Below are positions 46,169 to 54,117 of a DNA stretch of 57,742 bases, in pieces. Positions within the stretch are counted from its first letter, which is position 1, and each line of letters begins with the position of its first letter. Under the pieces are notes generated by a model, which was given only the letters and a program-made list of their open reading frames with translations, had not been told where the DNA came from and searched no databases. The DNA is from an uncultured Flavobacteriales bacterium (GTDB taxonomy: Bacteria > Bacteroidota > Bacteroidia > Flavobacteriales > BACL11): positions 1 to 57,742 of the forward strand of contig CAJWRW010000004.1 in NCBI GenBank assembly GCA_913046315.1, in the 5' to 3' direction. The position numbers were made by a program, and so were the translations under genes.

Positions 46169-47137
46169 GTGAAATTTTTAATTATACAAACTGCATTTAT
46201 TGGAGATGTTATCCTGGCAACTCCTATTATTGAGAAACTCAATTCTTTTTTTTCAGCAGCTAAAATTGATTTTTTGCTAAGAAAAGGGAATGAAGGACTT
46301 TTAGAGAATCATCCAAAGATAAATAAGGTTTTAATTTGGGATAAGCAGAAAAATAAGCAGCAAAACTTATTTAGAATAATGCAAACTATAAGAAGTGAGC
46401 ATTATGATTATGTAATTAATCTGCAAAGATTTTTATCCACAGGACTACTTACAGCATTTTCTAAAGGAAAAACAATAATAGGGTTTAAAAAAAATCCTCT
46501 CTCAATGCTTTTTCATCAGAAAATAGAGCATAATATTAAGAAGGGAATACATGAAGTAAATAGAAATCTTAGCCTTATTGAAAATATTACGGATAATAAG
46601 ATCCAAAATCCAAAATTATATCCTACTGAAGCAGACTTCTCCTTTGTTGAGAAATATAAGAATGAACCTTATATCTGTATAGCGCCAACTTCTGTATGGT
46701 TTACGAAACAATTTCCAGCACAAAAATGGCTTGAACTTATCAATAAAGTAGACCAGAAAATTTATTTGATTGGCGGAAAAGAGGATTATAAAAAGTGTGC
46801 TGAGATTATAAGTAAATCAACAGCTCAAAAGATTGAAAGTTTGTGTGGAAAATTGACGCTACTAGAATCAGCTGCACTCATAAAAGATGCTGAAATGAAT
46901 TATGTGAATGATTCTGCACCCATGCATATTGCATCTGCTATGAATGCGTCAACTAGAGCTATTTATTGTTCTACAGTTCCTGACTTTGGGTTCGGGCCCC
47001 TATCAAGCCAATCAAAAGTTGTGCAGACAAAAGAACAATTAGATTGCAAGCCTTGTGGGCTTCATGGTTTAAAAGATTGCCCAAAAGGGCATTTTAAATG
47101 TGCTAGCACTATTGATGTTAATGAAATTATCGGATAA
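46169..47137 (+). CDS. GT9 glycosyltransferase (LPS heptosyltransferase family)
   Basis: QTAFIGDV.L.TP, L.G.LTL.ES, NDSAPMHIA, C.PC..HG...CP.GHF.C; GTG start. Confidence 0.92.
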   Translation: MKFLIIQTAFIGDVILATPIIEKLNSFFSAAKIDFLLRKGNEGLLENHPKINKVLIWDKQKNKQQNLFRIMQTIRSEHYDYVINLQRFLSTGLLTAFSKGKTIIGFKKNPLSMLFHQKIEHNIKKGIHEVNRNLSLIENITDNKIQNPKLYPTEADFSFVEKYKNEPYICIAPTSVWFTKQFPAQKWLELINKVDQKIYLIGGKEDYKKCAEIISKSTAQKIESLCGKLTLLESAALIKDAEMNYVNDSAPMHIASAMNASTRAIYCSTVPDFGFGPLSSQSKVVQTKEQLDCKPCGLHGLKDCPKGHFKCASTIDVNEIIG

Positions 47138-47138
47138 T

Positions 47139-47906
47139 ATGGAGAGGCTTACGGCAATCATACCTACTGGAAATGAAGAGCACAACATTGTAGATGCTAT
47201 AAAGTCGGTTGATTTTGCTGATGAGATTATGGTTGTAGATTCATTTAGCACCGACAATACCATCAAATTTGCCAAACCATTAGCTGACAAAATTTTACAA
47301 AGGGAATATGAGAATTCTGCATTACAAAAAAATTGGGCCATTCCTCAAGCGCAACATTCTTGGATTATATTAATTGATGCTGACGAAAGGATTACAAAAG
47401 AATTAAAAAACGAAATCATCAACATATTAAAAGAAGGGACAAAATACAGTGGGTTTTGGATAAAAAGAGAAAACTACTTTATGGAAAAAAGAGTTCGATT
47501 TAGCGGTTGGCAAGGAGATAGCGTAATTAGGCTATTCAAAAGGGATGAATGTAAATATGAGGACAAACATGTACATGCTGAGATTATTAGTAGTGGAAAA
47601 ATTGGAAATCTTAAACACAAATTAATTCACAATACATTTATAAGTAAGCAAGCTTATCTAAAAAAAATAGAACGCTATGCAAAATGGCAATCCAAAGATT
47701 ATGAGAAGAAAGTAACTTTAATAACTCCATATCACACCATTGCAAAACCAATTATAAGATTCATCAAGCACTATTTTTTTCAATTAGGCATATTAGATGG
47801 ATATGTCGGATTAATAATATCACTATATCAAGCAAAAGCTGTTAAATTACGCTACAAATACCTTAAAGAGCAGAGAAATGGAAAAGGAAATAAAAAAGGC
47901 TGTTGA
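47139..47906 (+). CDS. GT2 glycosyltransferase (WaaE/KdtX-like)
   Basis: NEE.NI, VVDSFSTD.T, QKNWA, IDADE, VHAE, GILDG..G; start ATG 47139. Confidence 0.9.
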   Translation: MERLTAIIPTGNEEHNIVDAIKSVDFADEIMVVDSFSTDNTIKFAKPLADKILQREYENSALQKNWAIPQAQHSWIILIDADERITKELKNEIINILKEGTKYSGFWIKRENYFMEKRVRFSGWQGDSVIRLFKRDECKYEDKHVHAEIISSGKIGNLKHKLIHNTFISKQAYLKKIERYAKWQSKDYEKKVTLITPYHTIAKPIIRFIKHYFFQLGILDGYVGLIISLYQAKAVKLRYKYLKEQRNGKGNKKGC

Positions 47907-48420
47907 GGTAGTTCAAAGTGGTGGTATTATTTTGTATCCTACTGATACAATTTGGGGTGTTGGCTGTGACGCAACAGATGAACAAGCAGTAGAAAAAGTT
48001 TATGAAATCAAAAAAAGAAATGAGAGTAAAGCACTAATTTCTTTGGTTTCTACAAAAGAAGATCTAACTAAAATTACTCAAAACATTCCTATTGAAGCGG
48101 AAAACAAAAATCCGACCACTATCATTTATAATGAAATTAATGGTCTAGCAAAAAACCTACTTGCTGAAAATGGCTCAGCAGCAATTCGCATTGTGCAAGA
48201 TGAATTTTGCAAAAGACTTATTGCTAAACTTAACAAACCAATAGTATCTACATCTGCCAATTTAAGTGGAACACCCTCTCCTACTCAATTTACAGAAATA
48301 GCAGATGAAATAAAAAATACTGTTGATTATATCGTAAATTTGCGACAAAATGAAATTATGACAACTCCTTCTGAAATTTTACTCATAAATACAGATGGAA
48401 GCCTTAAAAGAATTAGATAG
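47878..48420 (+). CDS. tsaC: L-threonylcarbamoyladenylate synthase (YrdC/TsaC, short form)
   Basis: YPTDTIWG, KKR, STSAN. Confidence 0.93.
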   Translation: MEKEIKKAVEVVQSGGIILYPTDTIWGVGCDATDEQAVEKVYEIKKRNESKALISLVSTKEDLTKITQNIPIEAENKNPTTIIYNEINGLAKNLLAENGSAAIRIVQDEFCKRLIAKLNKPIVSTSANLSGTPSPTQFTEIADEIKNTVDYIVNLRQNEIMTTPSEILLINTDGSLKRIR

Positions 48421-50759
48421 TGAATTATAGTTCAAGATTAGAAAATCCTATTTTCTTGAAAATACAAACTGTAGCTGATGAGCTAAACTACCCTGCTTTT
48501 GTAGTTGGTGGATGGGTTAGAGATATGCTGCTAAACAGAGAACAAAAAAAGACTGATATTGATTTCGTTTGTGTTGGAAGCGGTATTAAACTTGCAGAAA
48601 AGGTTGCGGAACAATTAGGCAAAAATACAACATTTAAGGTTTTTAAGAATTTCGGTACTGCAGTGATTAATTTCAATGGGGAAAATTACGAATTTGTTGG
48701 AGCTAGAAAAGAATCTTATCGGGACAACAGTAGAAAACCAATTGTTGAAGATGGTAGCTTAGAAGATGATCAGAACAGGAGAGATTTTACAATTAACGCC
48801 ATCTCTATTCAGCTCAATAAAGCAAATTTTGGCTTACTAATCGATCCTTTTAACGGTAAAAAGGATTTGGAAAAAAAAATTATCCGCACACCCTTAAATC
48901 CTAACATCACTTATTCTGACGATCCGCTTAGGATGATGCGTGCAATTCGTTTTGCCAATCAGTTAAGCTTTCAAATTGAAGAAGAATCGTTTGAAGCAAT
49001 TAAGCAAAATACGGAAAGATTAAAAATTATCTCAACTGAAAGAATTACTGATGAATTTAATAAAATTATGCTTTGTAACAAGCCTTCTTACGGCATCAAC
49101 TTGTTGTTTGAAACAGGCTTATTAAATCAATTTTTCCCTCAGCTTTTCAACCTTCAAGGTGTTGATATTAAAAATGGGAGAGCACACAAAGACAATTTTT
49201 ATCATACGTTAGAAGTATTGGATAATATTGCAAAAAATACAGATGATTTATGGCTTAGATGGGCAGCTCTTTTACATGATATAGCAAAGCCAAGAACAAA
49301 AAAATATTTTGAAAAGCAAGGTTGGACTTTTCATGGACATGAGTTTTTTGGATCGAAAATGGTACCTAAAATTTTTAAAAATCTGAAACTTCCATTAAAT
49401 GAAAAAATGAAATATGTACAAAAATTGGTTTTACTGCATTTACGCCCAATTGTACTTGCTCAAGATATTGTTACCGATTCTGCGATAAGACGATTACTTT
49501 TTGATGCTCGAGATGATATTGATGATTTGATGATGCTCTGTGATGCTGACATAACTTCTAAGAATCCGAATAAAGTAAAAAAGTATCTTAAAAATTTTCA
49601 ATTGGTGAGAAAAAAACTAAAAGAGGTTGAAGAAAAAGATCATATTCGGAATTTTCAACCACCAATTGATGGAGTTGAAATCATGCAATTTTTTGGCATA
49701 AGTGCGGGAAGAGAGATTGGGATCATTAAAAATGCCATTAAAGAGGCTATTTTAGATGGAGAGATTAAAAATAATAAAGAAGAAGCCAGAAAATTCATGA
49801 TTGCAAAAGGAGCTGAAATTAACCTTAGTCCAAAAAAAAGAAATAAAATATTGACAAAAAAAGCGAAAAGTAAAAAACGCTTGATTGTAATTTCCGGGGC
49901 AACTGCAATAGGAAAAACAGCTCTTAGTATAAAATTAGCACAACATTTTAATACCGAAATAGTTTCTGCAGACTCAAGACAATTTTACAAGGAATTAAAA
50001 ATTGGAGCAGCTCCTCCTTCAAAAAAGGAATTAGCAAAAGTAGGACATCATTTTATTCAACATTTATCGGTAAAAGAAGACTATAATGTAGGACGTTTTG
50101 AGAAAGAGGCTATTGAAAAAATAGAAGAACTATTCTTGAAAAATGAAGTTGTGATAATGGTTGGCGGTTCAGGCCTTTACATTGATGCTATTTGTAATGG
50201 GCTAGATGTTTTTCCAGATATTGATCAAAAGATAAAACAAGCGTATATAACAAAATATAAAAGTGAAGGAATCAAGTTTCTGCAAAACGAATTAAAACAA
50301 AAGGATCCACTTTATTATGAGATCACGGATATTAATAATCATCAAAGGTTAATACGCGCACTATCTGTAATAAAAGAAAGCGGAAAAACATTTTCCTCTT
50401 TCAGAAAGAATAAATCTATATTAAGGAATTTTGAAATTCAGCATTACTTTCTAGAAATGAATAGAGAAAATTTGTATGATAAAATCAACCTAAGGGCAGA
50501 TAAAATGATACAAGCAGGCTTGCTAAAAGAAGTAGAAAGCTTATTAAACTTCAGAAGTAAAAATGCGCTACAAACAGTCGGTTATAAAGAGTTATTTGAA
50601 TATTTTGATGGAAAAATAAGCCTTGATGAGGCCATAGAGAAAATCAAAAGAAATAGCAGAAGATTTGCAAAAAGGCAAATATCTTGGTTTAAAAGAGATG
50701 AGAATATTTGCAGGATTGAAGAAGAAAATGCTTTTGAAAAGATTATCGAATTATTGTAA
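48420..50759 (+). CDS. cca-miaA: In-frame fusion of an HD-domain CCA tRNA nucleotidyltransferase (about aa 1-472) and tRNA dimethylallyltransferase MiaA (about aa 478-779)
   Basis: GGWVRD, DIDF, RRDFTINA, DDPLRMMRA.RF, LLHDIAK; then GATAIGKT, SADSRQ, VGGSGLY, VGYKE, AKRQ.SWF; no stop between the halves. Confidence 0.9.
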   Translation: MNYSSRLENPIFLKIQTVADELNYPAFVVGGWVRDMLLNREQKKTDIDFVCVGSGIKLAEKVAEQLGKNTTFKVFKNFGTAVINFNGENYEFVGARKESYRDNSRKPIVEDGSLEDDQNRRDFTINAISIQLNKANFGLLIDPFNGKKDLEKKIIRTPLNPNITYSDDPLRMMRAIRFANQLSFQIEEESFEAIKQNTERLKIISTERITDEFNKIMLCNKPSYGINLLFETGLLNQFFPQLFNLQGVDIKNGRAHKDNFYHTLEVLDNIAKNTDDLWLRWAALLHDIAKPRTKKYFEKQGWTFHGHEFFGSKMVPKIFKNLKLPLNEKMKYVQKLVLLHLRPIVLAQDIVTDSAIRRLLFDARDDIDDLMMLCDADITSKNPNKVKKYLKNFQLVRKKLKEVEEKDHIRNFQPPIDGVEIMQFFGISAGREIGIIKNAIKEAILDGEIKNNKEEARKFMIAKGAEINLSPKKRNKILTKKAKSKKRLIVISGATAIGKTALSIKLAQHFNTEIVSADSRQFYKELKIGAAPPSKKELAKVGHHFIQHLSVKEDYNVGRFEKEAIEKIEELFLKNEVVIMVGGSGLYIDAICNGLDVFPDIDQKIKQAYITKYKSEGIKFLQNELKQKDPLYYEITDINNHQRLIRALSVIKESGKTFSSFRKNKSILRNFEIQHYFLEMNRENLYDKINLRADKMIQAGLLKEVESLLNFRSKNALQTVGYKELFEYFDGKISLDEAIEKIKRNSRRFAKRQISWFKRDENICRIEEENAFEKIIELL

Positions 50760-53700
50760 CCGTTCCTCTAATAGGATCTACACTTCCTTTTAGCGTTATC
50801 ACATAAAAATAGGCACCATCAGGAACTGCTTTTCCCTTTTTATTTGTGCCATCCCAAGGCGTTTCGTAACCCACAGATTCATACATCTTTTTTCCAAACC
50901 TACCATAAATAGTTATGGTTGATTCTTGATACAAGAAAGAATCCTCTAATTCCCAATTGTCATTTACATTATCGCCATTTGGAGAAAACACATTTGGAAT
51001 ACAATCTGGTCCAATTGCGGCAATTTGAACAGAAGTGTCTAACTGACATCCGTTCCTGTCATACAAACTTACCTGATAAGTACCAGGATTGAGATTATCC
51101 TCTAACCTATCTAAAGTGTCTCCTGTTGACCATAAAAATCTAAAATTAGGCGTTCCTCCGCTAGGATTAACAATAATACTACCATCAAAATCATCTTCAC
51201 AATCTACTATACTTACATCAGGGCTTAGTATTACTGATAGCGGATCAATGGTAAAACCTTCAGTGTATGGACAAGCAATAGGTCCTCCGTTTGCAGTTAC
51301 AGTTACTGAGTGATATCCTTCACAAAGACTATCAGCAGTTGGAGTAGTTTGTCCATTAGTCCATAAATAAGAAAATGGACCGATTCCCCAACTAGAATCA
51401 ATTACAGTGGATGTAGCGGCATCTACTAACTGATTTACATTATACAAAACATCAATGGAGAAGGTGTCTTCACAATTCTTACTATCTGTTACTGTAATGG
51501 GATAATTCCCTTGACACAAACCTTGAATAGAATCTCCTGTCATTGAGATAGAAGTCCAATCAATATTAAAAGGAGCATAGGCTCCACTTATAACAACAGT
51601 AGACCAAAGTGATAAATAATCATAAAAACCATTTGCTGATACCGTATTAGTCATTTGATTAAGCGTGTAGCTTGCAGTAGTTGTAAGCCCACAATCATCT
51701 GTAATGAGAATTGTATAATTACCATAACCAATTCCTGAAATATCTTCAGTTCCCTGTCCATTACTCCAACTATAAATGTAAGGTTTAAAACCGCCACTTA
51801 CAGTTATATCGATTGCACCATCATCATCAGAACAGGATGGCTGTACTAAATTAAAATTATCAATATTTAATGTAGATATAAAAGGTGCTAACTCAACCGA
51901 TAAAGAATCTTTTATACCACATGAATCTACAACAACAACCCAATATATACCTGCACTAAGTCCAGCAACAGAAGTCCCATTATCTCCCGTGCTCCATTGA
52001 ATCTGATAAGGTAGTGTTCCCCCATTAATTATTACATCAATAGTTCCATCATTTCCCAAACAAGATGGATTCACAGGATTAGTATCTACTGTTAATGGAT
52101 CAGGACTTGCAATAAAAACAGTTGCTGAATCTTCACAGCCAACATCATCACTTACTAAGATCTGGTGCATTCCCCTACCGACAATTGTTTGATTTGTCGT
52201 GTCACCATTATCCCATAAAATATCGTAATTACCACTTGCAGTTGTACCCGCTGAAATATTTGCAGTAATAGCTGTGAGCTCACCATAACAAGATAAAGAA
52301 GAAGTATAATTAGTAAATGAAATAATTAAGGAATCGGTACTTTGCAAAGGGATAGAATCACTCATCTCACAGCCTATTGAATCTGTAATTGTTAAAGCAT
52401 ACAATCCAACTTGTAAGTTTGTAAGACTATCAATTGTATCTCCACTACTCCATAAAAAAGAATATGGCCATATACCACCACTAATACTTGCATTAATAGT
52501 ACCATTTGCATGATTAAGACAGCTTGGATTTCTGCTATCAAAAATTATGTTAATTATTGGATTCTCAGTAATAGTGTAACTACTATTTGGATATGAACAA
52601 CCCAAAGAATCATTAATCAAAACAGCATAAGTACCAACATTTAGTGCCATTGGATTTATGCCTAATCCCCAATCAATAGTAATTTGTCCTGTTCCGCCAC
52701 TTATTTGCAAAAACACTTGCCCTGTACTATCTCCATTACAATCTACATTAATGATAGAATCTGTAACCGTAATTGCTGGAGGTGTAATTACATGAATGCC
52801 ATTGGTAGAATCTAAACAGCCATTAGCATCATATATAAATACCTTGTTAAACCCTCCTGCTACATAAATTGAATCTGAAGTTGATCCATCTGACCATTCG
52901 TAAATATAAGGTCCATTGCCTCCAAAAATAGAATCTAAATATATCCATGTACTATCATAAGAGCACAGTGGAAAAGTATTTGAAGAAATACTTGCAACAA
53001 TTGAGTCTGGTTGCGGGATAAAGATTGTTGTATCTAAAATACAGCCAAATGAATCAACTACTGAAATTAAATAACTTCCAGGAAAAAGATTTACAGCTGA
53101 TATACTATCTACAGAAGATGATATAGCTGAATTAGCAATTATATTACTAGCTCCATTTGTATCACTGAAAGCTATAGTATCATTACTCTTAATAATGTAA
53201 TATGAGTACTGCTTGTTAGTAGTAAACTTTCTTCCTCCCGTTACGTAAAAATGAACATCTGTAGAATAACCAAAACAATCAACACTATCAACAACAATAG
53301 TATCAAATACTAATGGATGTGGTGAATAAATAATTGACATACTAGTATCATAACATCCGACAGAATCACTAACTATTACTTTATATTGACCAACTGGAAG
53401 ATTGGCATGAATCGTATCGTCCTGACCATAAGAGAACGATACTCCATCTTTGTACCACTCATAATTGTACGGAGGCGAGCCTGAATGCCCTTTACTTTTT
53501 AACTCACCTGTAGAGTCTCCAACACATCTTACATTGATGTGATCTGAGGATATTCCAAGTGGACAACCTATAAATCGTACTGCCGTATCACAAAAAACAC
53601 CATTATGATCGTATACCTTTACATAAAAAGAACCACAAGTATCTGAAATCAAAGAATCATTAATAGAAACAAGCATGTTAGAACTATTATACCATTCATA

Positions 53701-54117
53701 TGTAAAAGGGGTGTTTGTGGCAATAATTACTGCTTTCATCCCAGAACTTATATGAGGTTGACAAACATAATAATAGGTACCAATACTGTTTATCAATATA
53801 CTGCCTCCACCTGATGCTACAGCAAAACCTCCATTTGAGGTTGTATCATTTGCTAACCAAGTTGATTGACTGACTTCCACAGCATTATGAAGTGCTCCAA
53901 GTTGAAACTTAACAGAATCTCCAACATTAACATATAATGTGTCAATCGAAAAAGATAACCCTTGATTTTTTATATTAGGGATTTTATATATAGGCATAAC
54001 AACTCCTAATGAATCATAACAATTAATTTTTGTTATATGAAAAGTGTCTTTAACACATTGCGCATTAGAAAAAAGACAATAGCAAACAAAAATTAATGAA
54101 AAAAGTAATCGAATCAT
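50743..54117 (-). CDS. T9SS type-B CTD (gliding motility-associated) protein with SprB repeats and an N-terminal cupredoxin domain
   Basis: Signal peptide; H77-C119-H122-M127; many C...G.I...GG..PY..W..G repeats; IPNVFSPNGD..ND...WDG...GAYFY...G.V.IIR. Confidence 0.9.
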   Translation of the reverse strand: MIRLLFSLIFVCYCLFSNAQCVKDTFHITKINCYDSLGVVMPIYKIPNIKNQGLSFSIDTLYVNVGDSVKFQLGALHNAVEVSQSTWLANDTTSNGGFAVASGGGSILINSIGTYYYVCQPHISSGMKAVIIATNTPFTYEWYNSSNMLVSINDSLISDTCGSFYVKVYDHNGVFCDTAVRFIGCPLGISSDHINVRCVGDSTGELKSKGHSGSPPYNYEWYKDGVSFSYGQDDTIHANLPVGQYKVIVSDSVGCYDTSMSIIYSPHPLVFDTIVVDSVDCFGYSTDVHFYVTGGRKFTTNKQYSYYIIKSNDTIAFSDTNGASNIIANSAISSSVDSISAVNLFPGSYLISVVDSFGCILDTTIFIPQPDSIVASISSNTFPLCSYDSTWIYLDSIFGGNGPYIYEWSDGSTSDSIYVAGGFNKVFIYDANGCLDSTNGIHVITPPAITVTDSIINVDCNGDSTGQVFLQISGGTGQITIDWGLGINPMALNVGTYAVLINDSLGCSYPNSSYTITENPIINIIFDSRNPSCLNHANGTINASISGGIWPYSFLWSSGDTIDSLTNLQVGLYALTITDSIGCEMSDSIPLQSTDSLIISFTNYTSSLSCYGELTAITANISAGTTASGNYDILWDNGDTTNQTIVGRGMHQILVSDDVGCEDSATVFIASPDPLTVDTNPVNPSCLGNDGTIDVIINGGTLPYQIQWSTGDNGTSVAGLSAGIYWVVVVDSCGIKDSLSVELAPFISTLNIDNFNLVQPSCSDDDGAIDITVSGGFKPYIYSWSNGQGTEDISGIGYGNYTILITDDCGLTTTASYTLNQMTNTVSANGFYDYLSLWSTVVISGAYAPFNIDWTSISMTGDSIQGLCQGNYPITVTDSKNCEDTFSIDVLYNVNQLVDAATSTVIDSSWGIGPFSYLWTNGQTTPTADSLCEGYHSVTVTANGGPIACPYTEGFTIDPLSVILSPDVSIVDCEDDFDGSIIVNPSGGTPNFRFLWSTGDTLDRLEDNLNPGTYQVSLYDRNGCQLDTSVQIAAIGPDCIPNVFSPNGDNVNDNWELEDSFLYQESTITIYGRFGKKMYESVGYETPWDGTNKKGKAVPDGAYFYVITLKGSVDPIRGTVTIIR

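Follow-up and report, generated by a model that had tools for sequence, protein, structure and literature searches.

The fused cca::miaA gene

The window analysed here is the whole 57,742-nucleotide (nt) stretch of contig CAJWRW010000004.1 (assembly GCA_913046315.1) from an uncultured marine Flavobacteriales bacterium of the BACL11 lineage. It contains a single open reading frame (ORF) of 779 amino acids (aa) in which cca, coding for a class II tRNA nucleotidyltransferase, runs in frame into miaA, coding for a tRNA-modification enzyme. The parts of this fused gene are as follows.

48420..50759, plus strand: fused cca::miaA ORF of 779 aa, with a GTG start that shares one base with the stop codon of tsaC
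48420..49826, plus strand: cca half (residues 1-469), with the class II nucleotidyltransferase head, RNA-binding neck, HD domain and C-terminal tail recognized by Pfam
49827..49877, plus strand: lysine-rich linker of 17 residues, S470-K486 (SPKKRNKILTKKAKSKK), encoded by the former cca tail, here in the frame of miaA, and by the first miaA codons
49851..50759, plus strand: miaA half, 302 codons from a TTG, with the P-loop at G493-T500 and the full IPPT domain

An earlier note, made from the sequence alone, had described here a complete nucleotidyltransferase with HD domain and a complete MiaA in one ORF, with all expected catalytic motifs and a short basic linker between the halves, and had proposed a bifunctional tRNA maturation enzyme. 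The description is borne out by the ORF list, in which the linker LSPKKRNKILTKKAKSKKR is contained in the 779-aa ORF, by Pfam and by NCBIfam, and the linker indeed comprises 17 lysine-rich residues. In the N-terminal half Pfam recovers PolyA_pol (PF01743) at residues 26-156 (7.5e-27), PolyA_pol_RNAbd (PF12627) at 184-242 (3.1e-22) and HD at 260-379, and in the C-terminal half IPPT (PF01715) at 521-760 (2e-76), the last covering positions 1-243 of the 243 of the profile. The NCBIfam model for MiaA (TIGR00174) matches residues 488-767 with its positions 1-284 of 288, at 257.5 bits against a cut-off of 148.65. For the N-terminal half the top CCA model is TIGR02692, with 332.5 bits under a cut-off of 438.8, and the scores with PRK13299 (179.4 against 290) and PRK10885 (140.9 against 451) likewise lie under the respective cut-offs. 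The hidden Markov models used do not separate CCA-adding enzymes from CC-adding enzymes, A-adding enzymes or poly(A) polymerases in the case of this half; we apply the label 'CCA-adding' because of its family membership and of the tRNA gene content described below.

To each half belongs its own alignment, with relatives down to 35-45% identity: 38 sequences for the CCA half (the window protein and 37 relatives) and 35 for the MiaA half (the window protein and 34 relatives). The window protein retains every invariant column of both, in agreement with the earlier note on the catalytic motifs. These columns are G30, R34, D48, D122, N126, D168, R171, R177, R208, E212, H262 and H286 in the CCA half, where D35, D46, R120 and R121 are nearly invariant, and G16, T18, G21, K22, D41, R43, G105, G106, R270, Q276 and W279 in the MiaA half (477 is to be added for the numbering of the fusion). 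The former presumably represent the glycine-rich/DxD metal-binding, RRD and (E/D)DxxR motifs, and the latter what we take to be the P-loop GxTxxGK(T/S), DSRQ, GGSG and RQxxW motifs. In a combined alignment of the whole fusion, distant MiaA rows landed on the CCA half at 12-20% identity. The nearest solved structures are the MiaA 2qgn (E 4.9e-55) for the C-terminal half and the class II nucleotidyltransferases 3wfo and 1miv. The ESM Atlas model of the 779-aa protein has a predicted local distance difference test (pLDDT) of 0.84 and a predicted template-modelling score (pTM) of 0.62, summary figures which fit a model of two well-folded parts whose mutual orientation is undefined. When a complex of the two halves was predicted from separate alignments, the score was 0.00 against a mark of 0.32; the prediction was run without controls and we weighed it neither way.

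Each half is otherwise an ordinary member of its family. The stand-alone Bacteroidota CCA enzyme P0002 (476 aa) is 95% identical over residues 1-472 and has the same PolyA_pol, PolyA_pol_RNAbd and HD domains, and the Atlas structure clusters of stand-alone CCA enzymes match residues 1-473 of the fusion with a template-modelling score (TM) of 0.99; such relatives are annotated as 'HD domain-containing protein' or 'tRNA nucleotidyltransferase/poly(A) polymerase'. The stand-alone MiaA proteins of sister strains (302 or 320 aa) are 92-97% identical to the MiaA half, which also has the full IPPT domain and the P-loop in common with the solved MiaA structures 2qgn, 3d3q and 2zm5/3foz (TIGR00174). 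The differences lie at the junction: stand-alone CCA relatives stop at …SPKTKKK*, whereas the frame in the window continues into MiaA, and unlike a stand-alone miaA the miaA frame of the window has no stop upstream, such that MiaA would form the C-terminal portion of what is translated from cca.

The tRNA gene content of the genome bears on whether both activities are needed. MiaB uses i6A37, the product of MiaA. In the draft genome to which the window belongs (G000; 1.23 Mb, 60 contigs, 33.5% G+C), 18 of the 19 tRNA genes lack an encoded CCA, cca and miaA have one match each, a count that is provisional at 77% completeness, and MiaB is present (TIGR01574, 443 bits against a cut-off of 355.3, G000:C5:26156-27505). 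We infer that the strain must rely on the fused ORF for CCA-adding activity, and probably for MiaA activity as well. Judging from the sequence, the 779-aa protein is very likely bifunctional, in the sense of two independent enzymes on one chain.

The junction and its alleles

The sequence elements that determine the frame at the junction are the following.

49832..49839, plus strand: A8 homopolymer that sets the frame, read as A_AAA_AAA in the zero frame; relatives have A5CA6 (12 nt) or A7 in its place
49844..49846, plus strand: TAA, the former cca stop (AAG AAA TAA in the congeners G002, G003 and G007), now in the -1 frame
49851..49853, plus strand: TTG (codon 478), in frame inside the fusion and the codon at which stand-alone MiaA begins in relatives
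49852..49854, plus strand: TGA, the cca stop of the A7 allele (P0274 ends …KKEIKY), in the +1 frame in the window and overlapping the miaA TTG

The window reads CC-A8-G-AAATAAAATATTGAC at this point, with CC-A8-G at 49830-49840. That the frame hangs on the A run, as the earlier note held, was verified with a script: a run of seven A's brings a stop after 477 aa (…SPKKEIKY*) and a run of nine a stop after 475 aa (…SPKKKK*). The TTG is preceded by A at positions -1, -3 to -6, -8 to -10 and -12 to -19, and four 302-aa MiaA relatives begin at precisely this codon, P0279 (MTKKAKSKKRLIV…) among them.

At 90% identity the window protein falls into a cluster of 15 members, of which the other 14 are all stand-alone proteins, namely six CCA enzymes, five of them full (476-477 aa) and one partial, and eight MiaA proteins, of which four have 302 aa and four 320 aa. 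Two near relatives of the CCA half, each 97.7% identical, have different ends: P0273 ends …SPKTKKK*, and P0274, with 477 aa, ends …SPKKEIKY*, which is the A7 outcome of the script. P0272, recorded from a contig equal in size and source to that of P0273, provides the miaA frame …VQKQKRNKILTKKAKSKKRLIV, corresponding to the window text with 4 nt more. At the DNA level GC-A5CA6-G of the congener G002 aligns with CC-A8-G of the window, and downstream AAATAA and TATTGACA are common to both. As read from the protein sequences of P0272-P0274 and the DNA of G002, the A8 allele would represent a net loss of 4 nt in a hypervariable A tract, and three alleles (A5CA6, A7 and A8) appear to coexist in nearly identical backgrounds, the fusion being one state of the tract. 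The junction sequence is different in each congener.

Authenticity of the A8 run

A reading frame that rests on a homopolymer invites the explanation that the fusion is an artefact of sequencing or assembly, the true run having another length and the genes being separate in this strain too. We compared four runs of four studies (X1-X4) with the window over 49300-50400, as Logan contigs. A 265-nt contig of X1 (49761-50025) spans the A8 run without a gap or a differing letter, and a 658-nt contig of X2 (49748-50400) spans it with 0 gaps; word depth at the run is about 6 in these contigs. Both have T where the window has C at 50340, and because of this substitution they are not copies of the window record. 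Across the compared region none of the four runs was reported to have an insertion or deletion. The run is hence eight A's long in X1 and X2 and not seven or nine, the lengths that the earlier note had named as evidence against the fusion.

Further records agree: the identical 779-aa protein is found on four contigs, the longest of 130,557 nt, and the ESM Atlas holds it letter for letter. In favour of an artefact one can point, besides the homopolymer itself, to the near-identical Logan contig with the A7 reading (P0274), to the X4 contig that breaks 5 nt ahead of the run and to the draft status of the 60-contig assembly. Against it stand X1 and X2, which come from different studies, share a distinct single-nucleotide polymorphism at 50340 and show A8 with 0 gaps, and the occurrence of the same protein on four contigs in several archives. 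The change from the ancestral form, moreover, amounts to 4 nt including a lost C and is no one-base miscount of a homopolymer, and A or T runs of at least 8 nt are ordinary in this genome, with 366 in the G000 assembly. On balance we regard an artefact as highly improbable. The earlier note had offered 'assembly error or strain-specific indel' as its alternative; the first part is highly improbable, as the X1 and X2 contigs carry A8, and the second stands, as relatives have A5CA6 or A7.

Two alignments from X3 were set aside. One contig matches solely from 49832 on, with 255 unlike letters before that point and a bin depth of 18.7 against 2.4 for the fitting contig; its loose end probably stems from a different and more abundant organism that happens to match over a short A-rich stretch. 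A joint marked 'skips 128' at 49342-49471 (side 20) was likewise taken as a short match from another organism.

Phyletic distribution of the fusion

The genus of the window is represented by nine species genomes in the collection, G000 included, and in all eight congeners a stop lies between cca and miaA. The cca gene ends with AAG AAA TAA in G002, G003 and G007, with AAA AAA TAA in G001, G006 and G008, with …SPKRRKDNP* in G004 and with …HPKKK* in G005. The congeners have miaA in another frame than cca, with the exception of G003, where miaA is in the same frame and starts two codons past the TAA. In two genomes, G003 (locus L002) and G061 (L096), we observed cca and miaA in frame and parted by a single TAA, which is followed by GTG two codons on in G003 and directly by ATG in G061. 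A fusion is one substitution away in these two, and the junction has accordingly taken several frame relations within the family.

A search of 68 family genomes at E <= 1e-255, a threshold that weak fused forms would escape, found the open fusion in none of the 67 other than G000, which gave the sole stop-free match over both halves; in G003 and G061 a single TAA interrupts the match over both. A search of 24 family genomes at E <= 0.001 likewise revealed none. Wherever this gave matches, in 21 genomes of the family, cca and miaA lie on the same strand within about 600 nt. Among 80 metagenome loci kept from 273 relatives, seven have cca and miaA directly adjacent, and none of the seven is open across the junction. 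A word-indexed search of 5.8 billion clusters with query residues 380-620 found no protein with PolyA_pol and IPPT together in the best 120 of 5726 matches, in which query cover was at most 57%, and a full HMMER scan of 1.84 billion representatives found none that matched both halves in the best 150 of 68,654 matches, a set outside which distant fusions with a total score under about 265 bits would fall. A fusion of a CCA-adding enzyme or tRNA nucleotidyltransferase with MiaA was named in the title or opening of the abstract of no paper found. The statement of the earlier note that no such fusion had been described thus agrees with the best matches of both protein searches and with the titles and abstract openings of this literature.

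Two kinds of candidate did not hold up. Open frames of about 930 aa hinted at cca…miaA fusions in G005, G011, G013, G015-G017, G021, G022, G032 and G038; the lead was dropped when the ORF lists of G017 and G005 showed three separate overlapping genes, namely cca, a 162-165-aa gene of the PRiA4_ORF3 family and miaA. The protein P0125 matched query residues 7-525, beyond the junction, and proved to be a CCA enzyme joined to Ham1, with no MiaA.

These data bear directly on the idea of an adaptive bifunctional enzyme, selected because one polypeptide holds the tRNA at its 3' end and its anticodon loop or channels it between active sites. Several observations would suit it: both domains are intact; both act on tRNA, and their genes have long been neighbours on one strand, no more than about 600 nt apart in each of the 21 matched family genomes; the A8 allele is present in at least two runs of different studies; and other C-terminal fusions of CCA enzymes, with Ogt (a 193-member cluster) and with Ham1, are established in Bacteroidota. 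The distribution, however, speaks differently, in that the fusion occurs in one strain-level lineage only, with a stop in relatives 94-98% identical, in all congeners and in all family members searched, and no second fused form appears in the best 120 matches from the 5.8 billion clusters or the best 150 from the 1.84 billion representatives. The junction is, furthermore, a low-complexity indel hotspot with three alleles, and the linker is the old out-of-frame tail and no designed connector. Because of the restriction to one strain-level lineage we disfavour selection for the fusion and consider an adaptive enzyme quite unlikely. The engagement of both ends of a tRNA by one polypeptide, or channelling, as put forward in the earlier note, finds nothing in its favour in our evidence and is speculation. 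A conserved bifunctional enzyme must be given up altogether, since the genes are separate, with a stop at this place, in 8/8 congeners and in strains 94-98% identical. To judge from the genomes compared, the cca::miaA fusion appears confined to one strain-level lineage.

Gene neighborhood and ancestral arrangement

The fused gene lies between the following neighbours.

47878..48420, plus strand: gene of the TsaC family (Sua5/YciO/YrdC), 180 aa (PF01300, 6.6e-40), the upstream operon neighbour
50743-54117, minus strand: convergent ORF of 1124 aa, whose product has an N-terminal copper-binding domain of the plastocyanin/azurin-like kind, SprB repeats and a CHU_C domain as signal for type IX secretion

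TsaC acts in the formation of t6A37, CCA addition takes place at the tRNA 3' end, and MiaA forms i6A37. As genes for t6A37, CCA and i6A37 here form an overlapping string, we consider tsaC, cca and miaA to be one tRNA-maturation cluster; the order tsaC-cca-miaA is also found in G017 and G005. The tsaC stop TAG has one base in common with the cca GTG. Further upstream are genes for a GT9 heptosyltransferase-like protein (46169-47137) and a GT2 glycosyltransferase (47100-47906), each gene overlapping the next through tsaC. On the other side, the fused ORF and the 1124-aa ORF overlap at their 3' ends, over 17 nt.

The usual arrangement in the family has a third gene in the middle. In G017 and G005 a PRiA4_ORF3 gene of 162-165 aa separates cca from miaA, overlapping each neighbour in a different frame (L010:2919-3407 in G017; L005:1040-1537, minus strand, in G005), and the G017 gene matches PF07929 (PRiA4_ORF3) at 1.3e-17. 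Gaps of 310-620 nt between cca and miaA suggest such a middle gene in 10 of the 21 matched family genomes (G005, G011, G013, G015-G019, G021 and G022), and gaps of like size are also seen in G032 and G038 of other families. The conserved place of the PRiA4_ORF3 gene in a tRNA-maturation string could hint at a tRNA-related role. From the arrangements compared, this gene appears to have been lost from part of the genus of the window.

Probable origin and possible expression of the fusion

We think it probable that the locus carries a genuine and young read-through fusion of adjacent, translationally coupled genes of a tsaC-cca-miaA operon, which is close to neutral and in which both enzymes remain intact and act independently. 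Its history may be reconstructed as follows. A PRiA4_ORF3-like gene would have been lost in the ancestor of part of the genus, which would have put the lysine-rich and A-rich 3' end of cca against the start of miaA. In this strain CC-A5CA6-G would then have been shortened by a net 4 nt to CC-A8-G, such that the cca frame now enters the miaA frame seven codons ahead of the miaA TTG. The predicted product of 779 aa, with both enzymes intact and about 17 basic residues between them, would perform both reactions independently, that is, CCA addition or repair at the 3' end and formation of i6A37.

Separate products may be made in addition. Some stand-alone MiaA might arise from the retained TTG in its A-rich context. 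Bacteroidia, to our knowledge, do without Shine-Dalgarno pairing. In Flavobacterium johnsoniae an adenine at -3 acts positively on initiation (PMC6847099), and upstream adenines favour it as well (PMC13000457). Some CCA enzyme of 475 aa (…SPKKKK*) might result from a -1 slip of the ribosome or of RNA polymerase on A_AAA_AAA, ending at the old TAA; the tail of this -1 product resembles ancestral cca tails. If so, all three states of the tract would give workable sets of products, which would account for its free drift.

Carried to its end, this argument becomes a different one: that the fusion exists in DNA only, decoding restoring two proteins through a -1 slip that ends cca and through initiation of MiaA at its own TTG, with the 779-aa chain a minor by-product. 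The tract reads A_AAA_AAA, a classic slippery heptamer, in the zero frame, the -1 frame reads K K and then TAA two codons on to yield the 475-aa product, and the TTG start has been retained with its A-rich context. C-AAA-AAA shifts to the -1 frame at 25-60% in Escherichia coli expression constructs (PMC1851650), and genes that carry a frameshift and A/T runs can regain their frame in the mRNA (PMC1088944). The tract is, however, unconserved among relatives, and its 8 nt fall short of the 9-nt length stressed in that source, which documents transcriptional slippage mainly for runs of 9 and finds selection against A/T runs in bacterial genes evident from about 9 nt. We think it unlikely that the fusion is undone in this way.

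Another possibility is that the A tract serves as a natural three-state switch, by which strains flip between a functional fusion (A8) and genes kept apart (A5CA6 or A7). Tethering in the fused enzyme would then alter how efficiently 3'-end repair and i6A37 formation proceed, or which comes first; we give this proposal little credence.

Several points weigh against the young, nearly neutral read-through fusion that we prefer. The four runs were compared as Logan contigs and not as raw reads, and these drop rare variants, such that they yield no allele frequencies within a sample. Two runs were not counted as bridging: the X3 contig (49812-50012) is gap-free over the run and yet reaches merely 20 nt to its left, and the X4 contig ends at 49827, just before the run, with zero cover over 49855-49928. 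The four contigs with the 779-aa protein may include one data set filed repeatedly, and one of the holders could be the source sample of the window. The CCA half lies below every NCBIfam equivalog cut-off, and the single count of cca and miaA is as provisional as the genome is incomplete. The RNA runs X17-X20 contain a share of 0.05-0.13 of the words. The 779-aa product and its activity are predicted here from DNA, and we infer from polymorphism that the fusion is probably neutral or nearly so.

Relationship to known fusions and significance

Fusions of comparable layout are known among CCA enzymes. In CCA+Ogt (P0121; a 193-member Atlas cluster) and CCA+Ham1/RdgB (P0125) a second enzyme follows the C-terminal tail of the CCA/HD protein, as it does here. 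Their partners are DNA-repair or nucleotide-sanitising enzymes and they form sizeable clusters, whereas the partner in the window is a tRNA-modification enzyme and the fusion a single sequence. With regard to mechanism, the case resembles the changes of reading frame and the mergers of neighbouring prokaryotic genes, at stops and starts that overlap, surveyed in PMC3711429: an indel at the junction joins co-directional, overlapping frames of an operon. The present case differs in having three alleles side by side in near-identical strains, two with separate genes and one with the fusion. To judge from the searches above, the architecture of a CCA-adding enzyme joined to MiaA is undescribed, and it is present as a single allele.

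Both enzymes are textbook proteins, and the fusion adds nothing new on tRNA biology directly. For annotation it is a caution that a seemingly unprecedented domain architecture can be a strain-level allele. Its value lies in providing a clean and datable example of the origin of a multidomain protein, in which an intervening gene would have been lost and an A-rich overlapping stop/start junction would then have drifted by indels. Living populations whose proteins are 94-98% identical show every one of its states, namely in frame with a stop, out of frame, and fused. If the fused protein is active, it would offer a natural scaffold to ask whether tethering an enzyme of the 3' end to one of the anticodon loop affects tRNA maturation, and if the three-state switch were true, the population would provide an experiment of nature on how a bifunctional RNA enzyme is born.

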